A stretch of DNA of 64,000 nucleotides from Trypanosoma brucei (lineage: Eukaryota). Below are positions 3,026 to 14,106 of this stretch, piece after piece. A program made the position numbers and the translations under genes. The notes below the pieces were generated by a model. It saw nothing but the letters and a program-made list of their open reading frames with translations. It made no database searches and had not been told where the DNA came from. Every line of letters starts with the position of its first letter. Position 1 is the first letter of the stretch. The stretch lies in contig CP000068.1 in NCBI GenBank assembly GCA_000002445.1, positions 128,001-192,000 of the forward strand, written 5' to 3'.

Positions 3026-4147
3026 CTAACAATCCTCTTCTTCCTCAGCGACTGCGGAAACGGGAGCGTAAGCACTCTGCACCTTCAAGCTGTTCTTTAT
3101 GCAGCGAAATAGCAAGAAACCGAGAACCAAAAAGAGTAACGAAGCAGTCACCACAATTATGCACGTGACAATGTCCTTCGATATTATTCCGTCTATAGAC
3201 GATTTCAATGACTTCTTCTCATGGTGCTTTCCAGTCGGGGTAGAGGATCGCACCAATTCCTTCAACGCATTCTTGTGCTTTTTCAACTCCTCAGCAGCGT
3301 TATGAACACTTTTTGTTGCCTCCTCCAACTTCTTAAGTTCATGTAGGGAAGAATTATAATCTCCCGTCCATTCCTCCTCAGGCACCGTACACGGACCCTC
3401 TGAAGCATATCCGTGACTTATGCAACTCGCATTCCATTGCTTGCTCGTATGTTTAACAGCTGCAAGCCCCGGTTTTGCACCATCCCAAGCGTTTATTGCA
3501 TTCGACATGGCCTCATATGTGACGTTAGCAGCAGTCACATTATCAGAACCTCCAATACTCTTACAATCAATTTTGAAGGCACCGGCTCCAGCAGCCGCAG
3601 CAATGCCATCGTCGCAGTTATTATTCACATTATGACTCTTCTTACCTTCCTTTGCACCAGTAATTGTTGTATTGCAGTATATCGTCAGTACCTTATTCAT
3701 TCCTTTGCTCTCAGAATCCCCCACTGCCTTTTTTGCGTGTTCCACGGCTTTGCTGGAGGCGTTTGTAATAATTTCATGTTGCTTCTTCACTTCTTCATCA
3801 GCTTTTGCGCTGGCGTTCAACACCGCATCGAGATGCCTCTTTATCGCATCCCCCACCGTTGCGTTCTTTGCTTTTATGGAGTCAACTAACTTACCAACCT
3901 TCTGCCGTGTCCTGTTCAAAGCAGAGGATGTGTTCTGAATAAACTTAATCTTCTGTGCTGTGGTATTTAAAATACCATCCGCAACACTTTGCATGGATCC
4001 CGCAAGGCCATACATGATGCATAATGCCCTAGCTCCTTCTTTATTAAATCTCTTGAGAGCAGGGCGCTGGCCTTTCTCAGCCGCAGCAAATGCAACGGCA
4101 GTAATTACTGATGCCAAAATGTAGGAGTGACGCAATCTTGCGCCCAT
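3026..4147 (-). CDS. ISG-like type I transmembrane surface glycoprotein, paralog 2
   Basis: 373-aa ORF. The first ~60 aa and a central ~150-aa block are identical to paralog 3. Own TM (IVTCIIVVTASLLFLVLGFLLF) and an acidic tail ending ...AVAEEEEDC. An identical 150-bp upstream region is shared with paralog 3. Confidence 0.55.
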   Translation of the reverse strand: MGARLRHSYILASVITAVAFAAAEKGQRPALKRFNKEGARALCIMYGLAGSMQSVADGILNTTAQKIKFIQNTSSALNRTRQKVGKLVDSIKAKNATVGDAIKRHLDAVLNASAKADEEVKKQHEIITNASSKAVEHAKKAVGDSESKGMNKVLTIYCNTTITGAKEGKKSHNVNNNCDDGIAAAAGAGAFKIDCKSIGGSDNVTAANVTYEAMSNAINAWDGAKPGLAAVKHTSKQWNASCISHGYASEGPCTVPEEEWTGDYNSSLHELKKLEEATKSVHNAAEELKKHKNALKELVRSSTPTGKHHEKKSLKSSIDGIISKDIVTCIIVVTASLLFLVLGFLLFRCIKNSLKVQSAYAPVSAVAEEEEDC

Positions 4148-4300
4148 ACCTTTACTACTAGTTTCAACGACACACTAAGCCTGAAATGCAATAACCACAA
4201 CACATCCACATTCATTTTTTTTATACGTACAAATACGTACAAATATATAAACAAGGGGAAAACATTGTATAAAACAGTAATTAGGAGTAACAAAGATGCA
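4148..4300. repeat. Duplicated 5' flank of ISG-like paralog 2 (copy A of a ~150-bp segment shared with 6298-6450)
   Basis: Sequence ctttactactagtttcaacgacacactaagcctgaaatgcaataaccacaacacatccacattcattttttttatacgtacaaatacg...aggagtaacaaagatgcaac is present at both loci, directly upstream of the identical start regions of paralogs 2 and 3. Confidence 0.8.
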
Positions 4301-5163
4301 ACCTAATGAAAGCAATGCACGAAATCAAACGATGCACCAAATGGCACTGTTGAAACACCGCTTTAATCATAAAGTCACGAACCGTATGTTTTCAGTGCAT
4401 GGTGACATGGTGAGTAGACAGGGGAACACTAAGCCAAATGAAAATTTTATGGATTACCACGACACCAACACTGGTCGCAACGGCCACGAAATGAGGAGAG
4501 GGATGCGGGGGGGAGGGGAAAAAAAAAAAAGAAAAAAGAAAAATTAGCAAAACAAAAGATAAAGGGAAGCAACGAAATGATCGAAGCTGGTTATAAGAAG
4601 GAATCCAAAAGAAATCCAACGAAAGAAAGAAATGAAACAAACCAAAACATCTGGCGTGAGTAACATGTTGTGTGAGCATGTCTGTCAGTTTACCCACTAA
4701 TATACAGTAATAAGAAAGATAACCCTCCAAATCCGCCTCAAGAACAAAATCCCTAAAGAAAGGAACGCCTCAATTCAAGTTGCGAAGACACAAAATTGTG
4801 TGAGTGTATTCACCGCACTGTAAACCCACTCCAACAAAAACAACGTAATTCTAACGAAATGACAACGAGTGGACAAAGCGTATAAAATAGGTATGAAAAT
4901 AACAGCAACTATAATCGTAAAGCATAGCAAGACCAACGCATTACGCATTACGAACCCAAGCACACTAACGACAACCTCGTCAAAACATACACATCCAACC
5001 GCTCCACCGCATCGGAAAGGAGAAAGGAGAAAGTCGGCAGACTCATGCACAGGTGACGGAAAATCTTCCGTTGCAAAGAAAAAAAATGAGAGAGAGCGAA
5101 GTCGAGCAAACGAAACACAAAAATAAACAAAAAAAGAACACAAACATTGTAACGGCACGACGA

Positions 5164-6297
5164 CTATATCATGAGTCGAGACCCTGACCTCTTGGTCCCA
5201 AAAGCGCTACCTCTGTTAAACCCGCGACGATTCATTAGCAAAAGTAATACACTAGTTGCGGGCACTATAGCCACAAAGCAAATGGCAACGGCAACAAGAT
5301 AACCAACAATGTCCGTGCCGCGATCCGAACTGTCGGGTGCCGGGACCAATGGTTCCGTAAGAGAATCATTACGATTTAAGTTGGAGGATCGCATCAGCCG
5401 CTGCACCACATCACCCGTCTGCGTTTTCATACCCTCAGCAGCGTTATGAACACTTTTTGTTGCCTCCTCCAACTTCTTAAGTTCATGTAGGGAAGAATTA
5501 TAATCTCCCGTCCATTCCTCCTCAGGCACCGTACACGGACCCTCTGAAGCATATCCGTGACTTATGCAACTCGCATTCCATTGCTTGCTCGTATGTTTAA
5601 CAGCTGCAAGCCCCGGTTTTGCACCATCCCAAGCGTTTATTGCATTCGACATGGCCTCATATGTGACGTTAGCAGCAGTCACATTATCAGAACCTCCAAT
5701 ACTCTTACAATCAATTCTGAAGGCACCGGCTCCAGCAGCCGCAGCAATGCCATCGTCGCAGTTATTATTCACATTATGACTCTTCTTACCTTCCTTTGCA
5801 CCAGTAATTGTTGTATTGCAGTATATCGTCAGTACCTTATTCATTCCTTTGCTCTCAGAATCCCCCACTGCCTTTTTTGCGTGTTCCACGGCTTTGCGGG
5901 AAGCGCCAGCAATAATTTCATGTTGCTCCTTTAGCTTTCTTTGGCCCCAGTCGAGAACTTCAAGTGCATCCTCTAGCTCCTTCTTTGCCCTGCTAAACTT
6001 TGCCGCATCTTCTATTGTCTCACCTTCCTCACGCTCCATCTGAACAACCTCCTCATGCCTAGCTTTAATCAGAACGAATGCTTCTTCAATATAAGCGATT
6101 TTATCGTGCATACTCTTTAAAATACCATCCGCAACACTTTGCATGGATCCCGCAAGGCCATACATGATGCATAATGCCCTAGCTCCTTCTTTATTAAATC
6201 TCTTGAGAGCAGGGCGCTGGCCTTTCTCAGCCGCAGCAAATGCAACGGCAGTAATTACTGATGCCAAAATGTAGGAGTGACGCAATCTTGCGCCCAT
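5164..6297 (-). CDS. ISG-like type I transmembrane surface glycoprotein, paralog 3
   Basis: 377-aa ORF. N-terminus MGARLRHSYILASVITAVAFAAAEKGQRPALKRFNKEGARALCIMYGLAGSMQSVADGIL is identical to paralog 2. The middle segment and C-terminus diverge (TM IVGYLVAVAICFVAIVPATSVLLLL, basic tail MNRRGFNRGSAFGTKRSGSRLMI). Confidence 0.55.
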   Translation of the reverse strand: MGARLRHSYILASVITAVAFAAAEKGQRPALKRFNKEGARALCIMYGLAGSMQSVADGILKSMHDKIAYIEEAFVLIKARHEEVVQMEREEGETIEDAAKFSRAKKELEDALEVLDWGQRKLKEQHEIIAGASRKAVEHAKKAVGDSESKGMNKVLTIYCNTTITGAKEGKKSHNVNNNCDDGIAAAAGAGAFRIDCKSIGGSDNVTAANVTYEAMSNAINAWDGAKPGLAAVKHTSKQWNASCISHGYASEGPCTVPEEEWTGDYNSSLHELKKLEEATKSVHNAAEGMKTQTGDVVQRLMRSSNLNRNDSLTEPLVPAPDSSDRGTDIVGYLVAVAICFVAIVPATSVLLLLMNRRGFNRGSAFGTKRSGSRLMI

Positions 6298-6450
6298 ACC
6301 TTTACTACTAGTTTCAACGACACACTAAGCCTGAAATGCAATAACCACAACACATCCACATTCATTTTTTTTATACGTACAAATACGTACAAATATATAA
6401 ACAAGGGGAAAACATTGTATAAAACAGTAATTAGGAGTAACAAAGATGCA
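6298..6450. repeat. Duplicated 5' flank of ISG-like paralog 3 (copy B)
   Basis: Identical to 4148-4300 by direct comparison. Continues into the 216-bp repeat listed below. Confidence 0.8.
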
Positions 6451-6649
6451 ACAGGTCACAAGTTGAACAAAACAACACGAGCACTAACATAGACTATGCA
6501 TAAATATATATAGATAAATAAAGATAAATATATTTATGCCGAGTGTATGATGTCACGGTAAATAGAGCATGGCATGAAATAAAACTATTACACCATAATG
6601 CTACTGACCTCATACCACTCACGTAACGCTCAGGAACAAAAAAAAGGGG
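6433..6649. repeat. ~216-bp direct repeat, copy 1 (downstream flank of trans-sialidase-like gene / upstream of ISG paralog 3)
   Basis: aggagtaacaaagatgcaacaggtcacaagttgaacaaaacaacacgagcactaacatagactatgcataaatatatatagataaataaag...cgctcaggaacaaaaaaaaggg recurs essentially identically at 9491-9706. Confidence 0.85.
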
Positions 6650-6962
6650 TTGGAACAAAAAAAGAAAATTATATGTATCGTGTCTCACATACAACAGAAC
6701 CACCTTAGATCATGTGATAAAGAGAAAAAAAAAATATAACCGTGCTCTCAGAGTGCCGGAAGCAGTCTACTGATGTCATTAACATCAGAAGAAAACCGGT
6801 AGCACCTGATATGTTATAGTTGACATCCTATTTGTAAAAATAAAATCGTTGAAACATACTCGCTTAAATTTACCGTCTTGAGTCTACCATTAAAGTTATT
6901 AAATGAAATTCATGTCTGCTCGTATTATCCTCCTCACGCTGAAATAACATGGATTATAGACC

Positions 6963-9317
6963 TCATTTCCTTACATCCAGTGTGTCATCAGTGATATCCA
7001 CAGTGTATGGGTTATATCCCGCCGGCATCTGTGGTAATCCCGCACCCGGTCGCATGGCAGCGTTTTGGGCTGCCCTCCGCTGCCGCAATACGAAGAACCC
7101 AACCAAACCAAGCACGATAAGTAACGCTGGGACCACTACAGCCGCAATCCATGCCAGGTTGCGACCACCCGATTTACCGCCTTGACCATCCCCATGATCT
7201 CCATTATCCTCATCCTCGTCTTCCAAGACAGCATCAAATGTACTTCTGTGCTTTACTGCAAGTAGCGCCTTCACATCAGCTACGCTTAGCTCATGGCTGT
7301 ACAAAAGCATGTTGAATACGGTAACACTCAGGTCGCCAGTTGCCTCACCCTTTCCGATCACTCGCTCGTTGGCTCCAACATATATCTCGTGTATCTCTGC
7401 CGACTGCGACAACGGCACAATACTGCCCTGACCATCCCCTACACGATTCCCGTCAATGTACGTATGGGCAACGCCGCCTCGCACGGTCAAGACAACCTGG
7501 TAGGTTTTCCCCTCTTCCAGAGCGAGTGTTTTGGCGCCAGCTGTCGTACCACTCAATTGGGTCCACGCCTTTTCGTCGTACCAGATACCCACGTCTGCAA
7601 TTAAGCCGGATTTGTTCCTCACGCCCACTCCAAGAAGTGGAGTGGGGTTCTTTGGTGCCTTATGGACGGCCACGCTCATCACGACTGTCAGCCCGTTGTC
7701 AATCAAATGGTACACTTTATTCTCATTTTTGCCAGATACGGGAAATACAACATGTGCGGCGCGTGTGCCCAAAGTGAAACCGGTGGTGACCCTCTTTACA
7801 GGGCCTTGTAGCGCACCATCCATGCCAAGGTATCCGTCACGCCAATGCGTGCGGTTGGCCACTTCAGACCAAAACCCAACGAGGCCCACCGTTGGGTCAA
7901 ACTTTGGCGCTGACGTGCTCTCCTCGCCCGTAGTGCCATAAAGCGCCATCACACTCCCGTCCACCTTCCTCCACAAACCCACCACTGCCTTCAGTTCATG
8001 CACACGGTCGGTGAGGTCGGTAAAGAAAATGCTTTTCAACTGGCTGAAACCCTCCTCATGCAGGGAGTACAGCCCACTCTCAGTGTGCAGGAGGGCGCTA
8101 AAAGATAACATGGATAAATGACCAGAGGAAATCGCCCCGAGGCAATGCGTCCGCTTGCTATCCGTCACCCAAAGGAGGAGCGGCCTCAATCCCGCATTCC
8201 CTGAATTGAAGAAGGCGCGGTAAGCAAATAGGATCACATCCGACCCATCCACCTTCATGTTCACGAAGTCACCTCGGTCGTCGTCATCGGAGTGATACTG
8301 GAAATTGGACAGTGCGTGCCTTTCACCCTCCGTAGCGTCAGTCCACGTCATCCCCACGTCTACGGATCGATACATCTTGTTTTTCGTCTGGTGTGCAACT
8401 ACAAGCAGCAATTCCTTCTTCCACACAAGCAGGCTGGGCTCCGTGCAATCGTCGATGTCCAGTTTAGCCGGGGTGAAGCTCCATGACTCACTCTCGTGCT
8501 TATAACGCGCAATAACGCATGTCTTAGCCCCACTCTCAGCGGACGCGACGAGAGGGAAAAGTATGGTGTCGCCCACAACAGCACCCTTTCCACCACTCTC
8601 GAAGAATTCCTTCCATGAGTGCTCCAATAGCGGCCTCTTGAACGTATCAGTCAGCGATGAAGGCTTATTCCACTTCACAACCTTGCCATCTTCCGCACCG
8701 CGGCCGCCGATAGTGCCCACGAAAAGCTTCACCTCCAAGTCGAACGCACCCTCTTGAGGTTCTACATCCTTCGCCTTGTTGCTGCTGAGTGAAAGAAGGA
8801 AAATCTTATCCTTCAGTACTATTGCCCTGGGGCCGTATTGAGCGTAGCGATGATCGGCCACCGGCTCATTCACGAAAACATTCTCAGTCTTCCATTTTTT
8901 CTCTGACATCCAACCCGCCGCCTGTGCGCTCTGGTGAGTCTCGCCAAGTGCAATAGTCTTTAGCCACACTCCGGCGTATCCGGCAGTCCACGCGTTATAT
9001 CGTGCTTCAGCGAGGGCAACAACACTCCCACCCACCGCCACGAGTGAATTACCTTCGAATAAACCGTGTTTCACATCATGACTCGAGTCACTGTGCGACA
9101 ACAAACTTTCTCTATTCCACGGTTTGAATAATTCCACCCTCCGCTTCTCAACTCCTGCAGGTTGGGAAGATGAGCCATTACTGCACACGGGGAGCAAAAG
9201 GACTGAAGCAACCAATAGTAGTAATGGTGTGTGCATCCTTTTGTAACTTTTCTCCCGTGTAGGGAAGTCATCTTTCATCCATACTCTCATGCTGGTACCT
9301 GGCTCCTGCAAATGCAC
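6963..9317 (-). CDS. Trans-sialidase/sialidase-superfamily protein, membrane-anchored, probably non-catalytic
   Basis: 784-aa ORF. The signal peptide probably starts at the internal Met (MHTPLLLLVASVLLLPVCSNG, near 9236). N-terminal RRVELFKPW resembles the TS N-terminus. One Asp-box SxDxGxTW (YRSVDVGMTWTD). C-terminal lectin-like domain carries the family motif VTVxNxxLYxxxL (VTVFNMLLYSHEL). C-terminal TM (IAAVVVPALLIVLGLVGFFVL) plus a 40-aa cytoplasmic tail. The FRIP motif position reads FEGN, i.e. the Arg is missing. Confidence 0.7.
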   Translation of the reverse strand: MHLQEPGTSMRVWMKDDFPTREKSYKRMHTPLLLLVASVLLLPVCSNGSSSQPAGVEKRRVELFKPWNRESLLSHSDSSHDVKHGLFEGNSLVAVGGSVVALAEARYNAWTAGYAGVWLKTIALGETHQSAQAAGWMSEKKWKTENVFVNEPVADHRYAQYGPRAIVLKDKIFLLSLSSNKAKDVEPQEGAFDLEVKLFVGTIGGRGAEDGKVVKWNKPSSLTDTFKRPLLEHSWKEFFESGGKGAVVGDTILFPLVASAESGAKTCVIARYKHESESWSFTPAKLDIDDCTEPSLLVWKKELLLVVAHQTKNKMYRSVDVGMTWTDATEGERHALSNFQYHSDDDDRGDFVNMKVDGSDVILFAYRAFFNSGNAGLRPLLLWVTDSKRTHCLGAISSGHLSMLSFSALLHTESGLYSLHEEGFSQLKSIFFTDLTDRVHELKAVVGLWRKVDGSVMALYGTTGEESTSAPKFDPTVGLVGFWSEVANRTHWRDGYLGMDGALQGPVKRVTTGFTLGTRAAHVVFPVSGKNENKVYHLIDNGLTVVMSVAVHKAPKNPTPLLGVGVRNKSGLIADVGIWYDEKAWTQLSGTTAGAKTLALEEGKTYQVVLTVRGGVAHTYIDGNRVGDGQGSIVPLSQSAEIHEIYVGANERVIGKGEATGDLSVTVFNMLLYSHELSVADVKALLAVKHRSTFDAVLEDEDEDNGDHGDGQGGKSGGRNLAWIAAVVVPALLIVLGLVGFFVLRQRRAAQNAAMRPGAGLPQMPAGYNPYTVDITDDTLDVRK

Positions 9318-9490
9318 GGGTTATATTCCGATAAAATTCCCCACGTTATCTTTTCACAATAATCGTCACTTGAGTCAGGCCTTCCGTCTATGAGGCGCGT
9401 TAGGCTCTGTATTATTTCACTGTAGGCGATCACTTGCTTTTCTTGTGTGAATGTCTGAATAAAAGTTAATTAAAAGCAAATGAAAATTAT

Positions 9491-9706
9491 AGGAGTAACA
9501 AAGATGCAACAGGTCACAAGTTGAACAAAACAACACGAGCACTAACATAGACTATGCATAAATATATATAGATAAATAAAGATAAATATATTTATGCCGA
9601 GTGTATGATGTCACGGTAAATAGAGCATGGCATGAAATAAAACTATTACACCATAATGCTACTGACCTCATACCACTCACGTAACGCTCAGGAACAAAAA
9701 AAAGGG
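9491..9706. repeat. ~216-bp direct repeat, copy 2 (upstream flank of trans-sialidase-like gene)
   Basis: Identical to 6433-6649 by direct comparison. Together the two copies bracket the trans-sialidase-like ORF. Confidence 0.85.
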
Positions 9707-10372
9707 AGCTGGAATAGAAGAGGTTAAGAAACACGCGTTGCAGTGCTCATCCCAATTCGTGTTAAAGCTACATGGGGGGAAAAAATGATATAATAAATGC
9801 AAACATGAAGAATGTCACTAACACTATTCTTGAGAGCGCTGTTGATTTTACTACTGGAAATCTTCTTCAAGAGTGGCAAGTTGATTTGCATTGATGTTTT
9901 TATACCTCCAATAACAACACCTTAAAGGTAGAACCCCTATTGTTTCCCTCCTTCGCGTCGCAGCAGAGTAACAAAAATGGTTTTGTCCATCAGACATATT
10001 ACGGAAAAAAGTGAAAGCAAATACATTCCATTTTGTTTCTTTTCAAACACAAAAAAAAAACAGATGGAAAAAAAAATACCAATACCAATATGATTCCGGA
10101 CACTTTTGCAAGTTATTGAGGTTGTCAATATCCTCATCTCGCAAAAAATTCAGGCATTCCCAAGTGTTAACCTTATGAGCCGAAATCTTCACATTATTTT
10201 TAAATAAAAAAAAATAAAAATAAAAAAAACAGCACGGACAGGGGCCCCCAACACATGTGTCCCCCACCCCCGGGCCCTCCCAGCCCTCTTTCCTTCAAAT
10301 AGAAACGACAACAAACCTCTTCACACATTCGCCTCCTTCGCAATGCTATGGAACACGAGGGGAAAAAAACAG

Positions 10373-10444
10373 CATCCGTGACAGGATTCGAACCTGCAAC
10401 CCTCTGATCCGTAGTCAGATGCTCTTCCATTGAGCCACACGGAC
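10373..10444 (-). tRNA. tRNA-Arg (anticodon ACG)
   Basis: Reverse complement folds by eye into a cloverleaf: GTCCGTG-TG-GCTC-AATGGA-AGAGC-A-TCTGA-CTACGGA-TCAGA-GGGTT-GCAGG-TTCGAAT-CCTGT-CACGGAT-G. The anticodon loop CTACGGA gives anticodon ACG. Canonical GGTTCGAATCC T-arm. 72 nt, no encoded CCA. Confidence 0.8.
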
Positions 10445-11450
10445 GTGGCGGCGGGGCGGAAAGCACAATGAGTTGTGAGCGGAAAAAAATTCAAACCCAA
10501 AAAAATTCAAACCCAACAAAAACGGCAGCGAGCTGACAACCGATATGTTCCACACCGCGCCGCAATTCGTGCGAGCCAACCCGGATCCAAGATGATATGC
10601 GATGCTCCTTTTTTACAACGTGTCACACGCAAGTGGAGTAATATGAACAATAATATAAAAAAAGGGAGAGAGGAATGGCAAACACTCAACAGACATGATC
10701 CCACCCCACGTAAATGTGTAAACTTTTTCATTCGCCCCTATTGAAAGGGTCTATTTTGCTAATGGCAATGTTTTTTTTTTTTGCCCTTTCATTTTTAAAG
10801 GGCAGCAAAAGCACATAACCGCCAGCGATGATAGTGCCGGTGCGGAAGTCAGCGTTAAGTTACCGCCGCGCATTTCAAGTCGTATATCTGATCATTGGGC
10901 CCCCTTTGGCCAAAAGGCTACACACACACACACACGCACACCTCCGCGGCGCACCGTGACTGAGAAGGAAACGCCGTCAACTTGATGTGACTATTGCTGA
11001 GTGTTTTTCATGCGCCAAGGTGCGACTCAGTTAAACAAATAAAACTGGGCATGCATGTGTAGCATGATAACCCTACATCACACTTTTACCCCTTTTTTTT
11101 CCAATCCCCAGAAGAGCAACGAAAAGAAATGGTGGAGGGTGCATTCAGGATTTTTTTTTTAGAAAAGCGATGAATCAGTACATAGTCATATCCAACAGAA
11201 AAAGAAAAAGCAAAGAAAGAAAGAAAGAAAGAAAAAGAAAAACACTGTCACAGCATCTGTCATAACGATAGCACCAGCAGAATACTGGTGAAAATATGGA
11301 GAACTTGTGGCGCCCATACGATATTTTCGTCGCTACCCAACGCGGGCATGCACGCACTCTTTCCACATTCCTTTCTGCATTCCCTCTTCCACACCCCCGC
11401 ACCTCACACAGTTTTCAATACTACACCACCACCCACTCCTCACAACTGCC

Positions 11451-12941
11451 TTAGTTCCAATTCCGCACGATCTTTCCGTCCCAGTTCAACTTCTCCCCCT
11501 TCTGCATGGCGTAGTAGCGATGCGTCTTCCAGCGACGCCAAGGTGAACCCGACTTACCCCAATGCGGGTTTGCTTCCCAGTATTTCTCAATACGCTCCTG
11601 CAACAGCGGCGTGAAGTGGCGGGCCAAACCCTGCACGGGCCATGCCGCTGCGGTTGCCAACGCACAGATGGTTCGCCCCTCCAGTTGTTTAGACACATCG
11701 AGCATGGTTCCAACCTCTTCCATACGTGCGTTACCGTGGACGAAGCGTTGCATCATCTTTTCGAGCCATGGGCTTCCTTCACGGCATGGCGTACACTGGC
11801 CACATGACTCATGGGCATAAAACATAGATAAGCGATGGATAGCCGCGATAAGGTCGGTAGATTTATCCATCACTATCACCGCTGCGGTGCCGAGGCCTGT
11901 TTGCGCCTCCTTCAGCGCATCGAAATCCATGAGGACGTTATCACAAATGCTCTTTGGAATAAGAGGACAAGAAGAGCCACCAGGAATGACAGCGAGGAGA
12001 TTGTCCCATCCACCCCGCACGCCACCAGCATGACGCTCAATGAGGTCCCGCAAAGGAATACTCATCTCCTCCTCTACTGTACAGGGCCGGTTGACGTGAC
12101 CGCAAATGCAGAACAGTTTTACCCCAGCATTGTTGCGTCGACCAAATGAATTAAACCACGACGGGCCGCGCCGGAGGATTGTTGGTGACACGGACACGGT
12201 CTCCACATTTGTCACAGTGGTGGGACACCCATAAAGACCGACATTGGCCGGAAAAGGGGGTTTAAGACGTGGCTTTCCTGGTCCACCTTCAATGCTTGAA
12301 ATCATCGCAGTTTCCTCCCCACAGATGTACGCTCCCGCACCGCAGTAAGTGTATAAATCAAAATCGTAACCGCTTCCGCATGCATTGCGGCCCAAGTAAC
12401 CCCGCGCATACGCCTCTTTAATTGCCTGATCCACAGCCCTCCACTCATTGTAAAACTCGCCTCGTATGTAAATGTAACCGTAACGCGCCCGCATGGCAAA
12501 ACCTGCAATGAGAGCCCCCTCTACCAATTTGTGTGGTTCATGCCGCATAATCTCTCGATCCTTACACGTCCCTGGTTCCGATTCATCTCCATTAACGACG
12601 ATGTAACTTGGGCGGCCGTCAGGTTTGGATTTTGGCATGAAGGACCATTTGAGTCCCGATGGGAAACCGGCTCCGCCGCGGCCACGGAGTCCACTGGCCT
12701 TAATTTCATTTATAACCCAGTCGTGTCCCTTCAACAGCAAATCGCGGGTACGATACCAATCCCCTCGTCGCTCAGCACTATCAATATCTGTGCCAAAATC
12801 CTGATAAAGATTAACAAAAATGCGGTCCTGATCCTTCAATCCACCGTGTACCCGCTGCTCCTGCTGAGTTGGTGGTGGTTGAGAAGCTGCTGCCTGAAGC
12901 AAAGACCCCGTAGCGGAAAGAAAACCCACACGCCGGAGCAT
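11451..12941 (-). CDS. NDUFV1: NADH dehydrogenase (ubiquinone) flavoprotein 1, 51-kDa subunit of respiratory complex I (NuoF homolog)
   Basis: 496-aa ORF. Contains the diagnostic NAD/FMN-binding region [19 protein letters not shown], and 4Fe-4S cysteine cluster residues near [13 protein letters not shown]-terminal presequence-like region. Confidence 0.85.
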
Positions 12942-13042
12942 TAATAACTACACACAAGGTTCAATTTGATTACACAAACGCACACAACCACAAATGGTAA
13001 AGGATGTGAATGCCAAAGCGCCTGTTAAGTGAGGAACCTTTT

Positions 13043-13079
13043 AAAAAAAAAAAAACACACACAAAGAAAGAAAAACAAT
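13043..13079 (-). promoter_or_regulatory. Polypyrimidine tract upstream of NDUFV1 - putative trans-splicing signal
   Basis: The + strand reads aaaaaaaaaaaacacacacaaagaaagaaaaacaa (T/C/G-rich on the coding strand), ~100 nt upstream of the start at 12941. Confidence 0.4.
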
Positions 13080-14106
13080 CCGCGGGCTACGAGCAATAAA
13101 AATTCTGAACGATTTAGTCGCTGCTATTGTTGTTCTTGTTGCTCCCTTGATGATTATAATGATGATGATAATGATGTATATACACACGCGCCCACCTAAC
13201 AGGCACACTACAACTAATTACTACGACTATTAGAAATGATATCTTCCACTACCGCTGCGACTACTGACTGTACACGAAAAAATAAAAATAAAAATAAAAA
13301 AAGAAAATCCGCTACAACCACCACCGTCTTTCCCACACTTTATTTTTTTTTCTCCTTCTCCTTTCTCGCCCTTCGCTTCCTTCTAATAAACTCGGACAAA
13401 ATGTGGAGTCGTGACTGTCTCTTCGTTCTCTTGTGTGTTTTCCTCTATTATTGTTATTATTCTTTTTTTTTTTCTCTCTTCCTTTACTTTTCTTTACTGC
13501 CCTTTGGCGTGGTTGAATCCGCTATTTCCCTAAATGTTGGTTGGGAAGACTTAAGGGCAGGCGGGAAAGAAGGAAGGAAATAGCAGAAAAAAAAAAAAAA
13601 CTCTGCTTCGTCCCGCACAACAAAACACGCGCACGCACCTAATGTAAACCTTCCACTAGTGGACGGATGTTTTTTTTTTACAAAAAAGAAAAAAAAAGTC
13701 ACATGAATAAATGAAAGAGAAAAAGTAAAAGTAAAAAAAAAAAGAGAGAGAAATAGAAACACAGAGATATGAAGCGAGAAAGTAGAGAAAACGAAAAAAA
13801 TTCATACACCATGCAGGCAAACAGCAAACAAGAAATTACCGCAGTAACATAACGGTTGGACGCAAAATACCAATCGTACACCATTATTATTATTTGGCAC
13901 TCTCTCACCCCAAAAAAAAAAAAAACAAAGGTGCCATAAACAACTCATCAAAAATAACAGGAAAAGTAGAAAATAAATAAATAAACATGGAGTGCAATGT
14001 GAAGCCACACCGCAAAGCGCCGTACAGCACGGTTTGTAGTGGGAGCAAATGTAATCATTTGGCAACAATGCAAAATGGTGAAGGGTTGATGTTTGGCAGT
14101 GGTATT

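Follow-up and report, generated by a model that had tools for sequence, protein, structure and literature searches.

This locus raises the question of why a trans-sialidase-like gene of Trypanosoma brucei brucei TREU927, Tb927.5.440, stands between two perfect copies of a 217-bp intergenic sequence (here called R), and of what this sequence does for the genes around it. The window that was analysed is the 64,000-nt stretch of chromosome 5 from 128001 to 192000, and a published chromosome 5 coordinate minus 128000 gives the window position used below; the lengths of untranslated regions (UTRs) given for this locus in the tables of PMC2936537 (33, 164, 253, and 290 nt) reproduce the ends of the open reading frames (ORFs) in the window at that offset. 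An earlier note on this DNA took R for an upstream module of ISG genes in which the sialidase gene had come to sit. We consider it likely that R is instead a duplicated, gene-converted piece of an intergenic mRNA 3'-end region within an RNA polymerase II polycistron. R would be the terminal part of the transcript upstream of it, together with a spacer and the first pyrimidine-rich stretch before the next gene, and it is not a 5' module.

All long ORFs of the locus lie on the minus strand. In the order of transcription they and the elements between them are the NADH dehydrogenase gene NDUFV1, the non-coding transcript Tb5.NT.13, copy B of R, the acceptor and coding sequence (CDS) of the sialidase, copy A of R, and the acceptor and ATG of Tb927.5.430. 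The sialidase is named TS-like E by Ling et al. 2011 (PMC3121479), and the three ISG65-like genes Tb927.5.410, Tb927.5.420, and Tb927.5.430 are called ISG-1, ISG-2, and ISG-3 here. A search for repeats in 4000-14000 and a self-BLAST of the whole window agreed that 6432-6648 (copy A) and 9490-9706 (copy B) are direct repeats identical at 217 of 217 nt. The perfect direct repeat around the sialidase reported in the earlier note is thus confirmed, with its coordinates shifted by one base, and the match widens to 225 nt at 99.1% identity (6432-6655 / 9490-9714). A perfect pair of 217-mers is beyond chance in 64 kb. The copies are spaced 3058 bp apart with the sialidase ORF between them; they bracket this ORF as had been described, and only the word "immediately" was loose, since copy A ends 314 nt beyond the sialidase stop and the annotated ATG follows 200 nt after the end of copy B. 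At the 5' edge of R, identity fades to background over some 20 nt; at its 3' edge the loss is immediate. The 5' edge lies in a T/C-rich tract in which the two sites are degenerately similar for about 20 nt, and the 3' edge in a pyrimidine-rich stretch. No RNA gene was found in R by Rfam, which matched only a tRNA elsewhere in the region, and the fold of R is not unusual (z = -1.57).

The mRNAs downstream of the two copies do not start in R. For Tb927.5.440 the entry in PMC2936537 Table S12 gives a splice site at 137454 and a 5' UTR of 164 nt, and for Tb927.5.430 a splice site at 134330 and a 5' UTR of 33 nt. The annotated sialidase ATG at 9290 is exactly recovered from the former entry at the offset of 128000, and four published splice-site coordinates of Kolev et al. 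coincide with an AG of the window, among them 134330, 137454, and 139091, which lie directly after one. The sialidase acceptor at 9454 is independently confirmed, because two Logan RNA-seq contigs obtained via the gambiense protein (L005 and L006) carry the 3' part of the spliced leader (...TTCTGTACTATATTG) joined straight to ACATTCACAC, which is the window from 9454 downward. Exact look-ups with the sialidase, ISG-3, and NDUFV1 proteins of the window itself returned no contig. This acceptor lies 36 nt downstream of R and that of Tb927.5.430 lies 102 nt downstream of R; the polypyrimidine tract of the latter (6414-6373) and its AG are both contained in another repeat, S, which is common to ISG-2 and ISG-3. 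The 5' UTRs that follow from these entries (9454-9291 for the sialidase and 6330-6298 for ISG-3) have no overlap with R, and the two acceptors are different sequences outside it. In one further Logan contig (L004, ERR7929163), 1.3 kb of unrelated sequence (1-1322) is joined to the sialidase mRNA at the splice site (9455) through a short spliced-leader-like CTATTG; the contig is probably a chimera that the shared spliced leader produced during assembly.

In trypanosomatid polycistrons, polyadenylation is coupled to trans-splicing of the next gene. Regions of such coupled processing have been mapped genome-wide (PMC2936537 and PMC2926603), and R resembles them in that the poly(A) sites listed here lie about 100-150 nt upstream of an acceptor (9554-9606 versus 9454) in a zone that R spans. 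The sites in question are those listed for Tb5.NT.13 at chromosome 5 137554-137606 in the entries for this transcript in PMC2936537 Tables S7 and S13, and as placed there they fall inside copy B. By the same entries the annotated end of Tb5.NT.13, at 9554, is inside copy B, and the last ~100-150 nt of the transcript consist of it. Unlike usual coupled regions, the same 217 bp would serve both the junction of Tb5.NT.13 with TS-like E and that of TS-like E with ISG-3, each with a different acceptor outside the repeat. For TS-like E itself, identity with copy B and spacing point to a poly(A) zone at the equivalent positions of copy A, 166-218 nt upstream of the Tb927.5.430 splice site, and its mRNA is predicted to be polyadenylated there. 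The prediction is supported by the spacing between a poly(A) site and the next acceptor, which is usually 100-200 nt. Contigs L005 and L006 run from the splice site through the CDS and 3' UTR to window 6616, which is 33 nt into copy A; such a stop is what one expects of a de Bruijn-graph assembly wherever two expressed paths merge. The stretch from the sialidase stop to the ISG-3 ATG has six ATTTA pentamers, and four of them are located in copy A.

The comparison with related genomes places the duplication and the perfect identity of the copies at different times. Both copies are present at orthologous positions in T. b. gambiense DAL972 (locus L003), where the gene order is as in the window, and in T. 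b. equiperdum (locus L001), where about 19 kb align collinearly with the window at 97.7% identity. The duplication therefore predates the divergence of these lineages, and the concern of the earlier note that the repeat might be an artefact of assembly is allayed by these independent assemblies. The same four places set copy A apart from copy B in both gambiense and equiperdum: a T>C, an A>G, the last base, and, in the AT-rich core, a deletion of 4 nt with changes next to it. Copy A of TREU927 has the state of copy B at all four, and a T>A specific to TREU927 is found in both of its copies (GTGACC, versus GTGTCC in all four other copies). The B states of TREU927 copy A and the shared T>A imply at least one later gene conversion in the TREU927 lineage, and the perfect identity of the copies is specific to this strain's lineage.

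In T. congolense, the best-matching sialidase is followed by an ISG-like gene 540 nt on. On that contig there is no direct repeat flanking the sialidase, no DNA similarity outside the CDS, and none to R; the contig is without NDUFV1 and tRNA-Arg, and the orthology of its flanks is unproven. Since the sialidase-ISG pair occurs here without R, the adjacency of the two genes is most likely older than R. The synteny comparison that had been proposed thus finds the sialidase between both copies in gambiense and equiperdum, and in T. congolense the pair alone. The T. congolense contig (CAEQ01002818.1) also carries at its start a second, partial sialidase-like fragment in inverted orientation (L002 6-251, minus strand), which matches residues 47-128 at 52% identity. 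The full-length sialidase lies about 8.5 kb further downstream, with no ORF of at least 150 amino acids between them. In T. equiperdum OVI, scaffold CZPT02001363.1 has a run of Ns at the edge of copy A (L007 9609-9618; window 6649) and resumes at 4529, skipping ISG-3, which makes it uninformative for copy A; the gap is an assembly break due to the repeats R and S and not a real deletion. Recombination between 217-bp direct repeats 3058 bp apart that would delete the sialidase is mechanistically possible, as had been suggested, although the gene is kept in all genomes and transcriptomes examined.

R shows the marks of a gene-conversion tract, that is, copies in the same orientation within one transcription unit, sharp boundaries, orthologous copies in related genomes, and shared lineage-specific states. 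As we picture it, R would be made up of an AU-rich 3' UTR tail, the zone of poly(A) addition, and the pyrimidine-rich stretch that comes first on the way to the next splice signals. Each copy would serve the transcript upstream of it, copy B ending Tb5.NT.13 and copy A ending the TS-like E mRNA; the gene downstream takes neither its acceptor nor its 5' UTR from R. On the T. brucei lineage, the duplication would be younger than the separation from T. congolense and older than that of brucei, gambiense, and equiperdum from one another. Its likeliest route is ectopic gene conversion primed by short homology, by which one intergenic region was copied onto the other; later, ordinary gene conversion between the 217-bp direct repeats would have homogenised the TREU927 pair.

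Ectopic conversion has been documented in the neighbouring ISG75 array of T. brucei (PMC1855330). The concerted evolution and ectopic conversion of tandem arrays described there (Jackson, 2007) likewise concern direct repeats within one polycistron, and R shares with these arrays the perfect tracts with sharp edges beside unrelated sequence and the lineage-specific state in paralogous copies. It differs from them in that the tract consists of intergenic sequence only and lies beside a gene from another family, the sialidase, rather than forming part of a repeating gene unit. A possible mechanism is offered by the one-sided conversion observed in T. brucei after double-strand breaks, in which one end is resolved by homologous recombination and the other by microhomology-mediated joining (Glover, Jun and Horn, PMC3045614). 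As in that case, R would be a short segment copied ectopically, with edges in T/C-rich and pyrimidine-rich stretches, and the degenerate similarity of about 20 nt at its T/C-rich 5' edge is compatible with the use of microhomology. Unlike that experimental and interchromosomal system, the mechanism proposed for R is read from junction sequences only.

Several points weigh against our reading. The case for concerted evolution consists of one shared lineage-specific substitution and four homogenised sites in a comparison of three genomes only (TREU927, gambiense, and equiperdum). Donor and recipient of R are not told apart by sequence, and both the original route of duplication and the repair mechanism that would have made the copy are inferred only. 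The number of copies refers to the 64-kb window and the 22-kb orthologous loci. As to function, multi-mapping reads were placed pseudo-randomly according to the mapping procedure given in PMC2936537 (Kolev), and so the poly(A) tags at 9554-9606 are not assignable to copy A or copy B. The abundances listed there differ about tenfold (21 RNAs per cell for TS-like E versus 2 for Tb5.NT.13), and given this difference the tags listed for Tb5.NT.13 may largely originate from TS mRNA. Among the rows listed from the tables of PMC2936537 there is no poly(A) site for Tb927.5.440.

The notion of an ISG intergenic module depends on how far R is shared with the other ISG genes. The lower copy does run into the shared 5' flank of ISG-2 and ISG-3, as the earlier note observed, through repeat S (3966-4302 = 6116-6452), and the overlap of R and S is 21 nt (6432-6452). 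This 21-mer occurs three times in all (also at 4282-4302 and 9490-9510). R as such is upstream of ISG-3 only; the region upstream of ISG-2 has these 21 nt in common with it and not the other 196, and ISG-1 has nothing in common with it. Only weakly, then, can R be called an ISG intergenic module, and this part of the earlier reading is not supported. The simplest view of the overlap is that S, the conversion tract of ISG-2 and ISG-3, has one of its ends inside R by coincidence; the overlap gives no clue to which copy of R is the original. A candidate extension of R upstream of ISG-2, reached by lenient BLAST (up to 4418/6566), was rejected, as its collinear alignment was no better than that of shuffled sequences (103/1000); stricter BLAST gave no R-like sequence upstream of ISG-2 at E <= 0.05. 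One non-collinear local match of 48 nt between the ISG-2 upstream region and R (z about 4.9) is equivocal and was not used.

A related alternative, also put forward in the earlier note, is the insertion of the sialidase into the ISG array. Here the gene would have entered an ISG-type intergenic region together with some 170-200 nt of its 5' flank and 314 nt of its 3' flank, and the 217 bp would be a long target-site duplication. Direct repeats that bracket a unit of 2.84 kb with sharp edges would fit such an event, as would the contiguity of copy A with the 5' flank of ISG-3. We nevertheless regard it as quite unlikely, because the sialidase stands at the edge of the ISG cluster, and upstream of it are Tb5.NT.13, tRNA-Arg, and NDUFV1 rather than any ISG or pseudo-ISG. 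Indeed, tblastn with the three ISGs and the sialidase found no remnant of either kind in 9300-11450 (best E 0.98), a result that also tells against a decayed tandem copy of a gene upstream. The T. congolense pair without a repeat and the lack of R, beyond 21 nt, upstream of ISG-2 and ISG-1 speak against insertion as well. Moreover, there are no transposon features. The repeats enclose a cellular sialidase gene and its own UTRs and nothing else, and the only inverted repeat around the unit is a weak AT-rich match of 62 nt (74%) which is inside the R copies and not terminal. Target-site duplications of trypanosome retroposons measure roughly 12 bp, far below 217 bp.

The stage regulation of the genes bears on two further alternatives. 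TS-like E is procyclic-enriched and stabilised by ZC3H20 via its 3' region (PMC3121479), and heads a list of genes with procyclic-specific translational up-regulation (PMC3973304); Tb927.5.420 and Tb927.5.430 are bloodstream-enriched (PMC2443814). R might be a portable 3'-terminal regulatory cassette through which the TS-like E mRNA and the non-coding Tb5.NT.13 have the same AU-rich last 100-150 nt, with four AUUUA pentamers. In procyclics ZC3H20 would then bind and stabilise the two RNAs, or Tb5.NT.13 would compete for ZC3H20, and the copies would be kept matched by gene conversion for the sake of the shared function. To this proposal we would assign a low probability. Judged by its length as given in PMC3121479, the 615-nt TS-like E 3' UTR probe would correspond to 6962-6348 if measured from the stop codon and would take in all of R. 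If so anchored, the "3' UTR" that showed ZC3H20 dependence in that source would hold most of the AUUUA motifs of R, and the second copy of R matters for the fine-mapping of that element.

That R is a fragment of a dispersed repetitive element, present in two copies here by chance, is hardly to be expected either. R is AT-rich and its plus-strand end is a run of A8, as a retroposon tail might be, and copies were counted in the window and the orthologous loci only. Within that scope, however, the 64-kb window and the 22-kb orthologous loci each have two copies and no more; the degenerate homology continues for about 20 nt past the A-run, which is hence not a retroposon tail. No flanking target-site duplications were seen around R, and no Rfam family matched it.

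A shared trans-splicing and 5' UTR cassette, from which the sialidase and ISG-3 mRNAs would start at the same repeat-borne acceptor, has very little in its favour. R starts with a T-rich tract followed by AG dinucleotides (CCCTTTTTTTTGTTCCTGAG), and it closes with 25 pyrimidine-rich nucleotides, located 34-60 nt upstream of the sialidase acceptor, which may add to the polypyrimidine tract of that gene. For the major splice sites the idea is already refuted by the acceptors themselves, which differ in position (9454 versus 6330) and sequence and are both downstream of R, with the ISG-3 polypyrimidine tract and acceptor in repeat S; the recruitment of a splice-acceptor/5' UTR module in front of the sialidase, and the use of one repeat-borne site by both mRNAs, fall with it. 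The opposite stage regulation of the two downstream genes also argues against R as an expression module shared by them, and fits the mapping by which R is not part of their mRNAs. That the perfect identity is an artefact of assembly or consensus in the reference is extremely improbable, as short-read assemblies do break at R (the OVI gap, the ends of the Logan contigs) but two independent chromosome-scale assemblies place both copies identically, and the TREU927 chromosome is presumably a finished sequence based on bacterial artificial chromosomes in which R, shorter than a Sanger read, has unique flanks.

A duplicated and converted 3'-end region is an ordinary phenomenon which requires no new kind of element or mechanism, and its practical consequences are small. 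The locus offers a small, clean case of gene conversion in intergenic DNA that is placed in time among the T. brucei subspecies. What remains of value is the content of the TS-like E 3' regulatory region and the confounded mapping of reads. On the TREU927 reference, reads from the final ~100-150 nt of the TS-like E mRNA cannot be told apart from those of Tb5.NT.13, and therefore the poly(A) sites, 3' UTR annotation, and expression estimates of both transcripts are confounded.

Table 1. Positions in the window of the repeats, genes, and processing sites discussed in the text.
Feature	Position	Strand	Basis or remark
R copy A	6432-6648	-	100% identical to 9490-9706; between TS-like E stop (6963) and Tb927.5.430 acceptor (6330)
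R copy B	9490-9706	-	100% identical to 6432-6648; ends 36 nt upstream of TS-like E acceptor
TS-like E trans-splice site	9454-9456	-	AG 9456-9455, first exon base 9454; unique sequence outside R
Tb927.5.430 trans-splice site	6330-6332	-	AG 6332-6331, exon from 6330; within repeat S, not R
Poly(A) addition zone assigned to Tb5.NT.13, copy B	9554-9606	-	PMC2936537 Tables S7, S13 (entries for this transcript)
Predicted TS-like E poly(A) zone, copy-A equivalents	6496-6548	-	Identity with 9554-9606 and spacing
Repeat S, ISG-3 copy	6116-6452	-	First 182 nt of CDS, 5' UTR, splice site, polypyrimidine tract
Repeat S, ISG-2 (Tb927.5.420) copy	3966-4302	-	337 nt, 100% identical to 6116-6452
Tb927.5.440, trans-sialidase-like (TS-like E), 775 amino acids	6963-9290	-	Pfam BNR_3 and TS_C
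Tb927.5.430 (ISG-3), ISG65-like, 377 amino acids	5164-6297	-	Pfam ISG65-75; exact match XP_844717
Tb927.5.420 (ISG-2), ISG65-like, 373 amino acids	3026-4147	-	Pfam ISG65-75; exact protein match
Tb927.5.410 (ISG-1), ISG65-like, 393 amino acids	1279-2460	-	Pfam ISG65-75
Tb5.NT.13, novel trans-spliced polyadenylated transcript, 1537 nt	9554-11091	-	PMC2936537 Table S7 (entry for this transcript)
tRNA-Arg(ACG), within Tb5.NT.13 region	10372-10444	-	Rfam 66.3 bits; ARAGORN
Tb927.5.450, NADH dehydrogenase 51-kDa subunit (NDUFV1)	11451-12941	-	Pfam Complex1_51K and NADH_4Fe-4S

The window contains only three repeats of at least 100 bp, all in this cluster. These are R, S, and a pair within the ISG genes (3276-3787 ~ 5420-5931; 513 nt aligned, 97.9% identity). 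The resulting mosaic of ISG-2 and ISG-3, with 337 bp at 100% and 513 bp at 98% and divergent patches between, shows the same pattern as the arrays of PMC1855330. In the proteins of Tb927.5.420 and Tb927.5.430, residues 1-60 are identical, about 61-125 strongly divergent, and about 126-290 nearly identical, and the transmembrane and cytoplasmic tails are unrelated. The divergent patch of Tb927.5.430 resembles Tb927.5.410 (AKKELEDALEV vs AKKELDEALAV). The protein sequences suggest a patchwork of gene conversion among the three ISG65-like paralogs. For Tb927.5.410, the poly(A) site in its entry of PMC2936537 Table S13 fits the 290-nt 3' UTR.

Upstream of the start of Tb5.NT.13 (11091) there is an AG and a polypyrimidine tract of 51 nt. 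The tRNA-Arg(ACG) gene between NDUFV1 and the sialidase is oriented like the RNA polymerase II polycistron; its conserved counterparts are at L003 8847-8919 in T. b. gambiense and L001 8844-8916 in T. b. equiperdum, and the T. congolense contig has none. The Tb927.5.440 protein is 99% identical to a trans-sialidase of T. b. equiperdum and 54% identical to a T. congolense protein, and its cluster at 90% identity takes in TREU927 XP_844718 and gambiense proteins. The ORF extends over 6963-9317 if a bacterial GTG start is allowed, with the annotated ATG at 9290 and the stop at 6963. Eighteen codons downstream of the annotated ATG (MRVWMKDD...), a signal-peptide-like MHTPLLLLVASVLLLPVCS begins with an ATG at 9236 on the minus strand, and this downstream ATG may be the real start codon of the sialidase.

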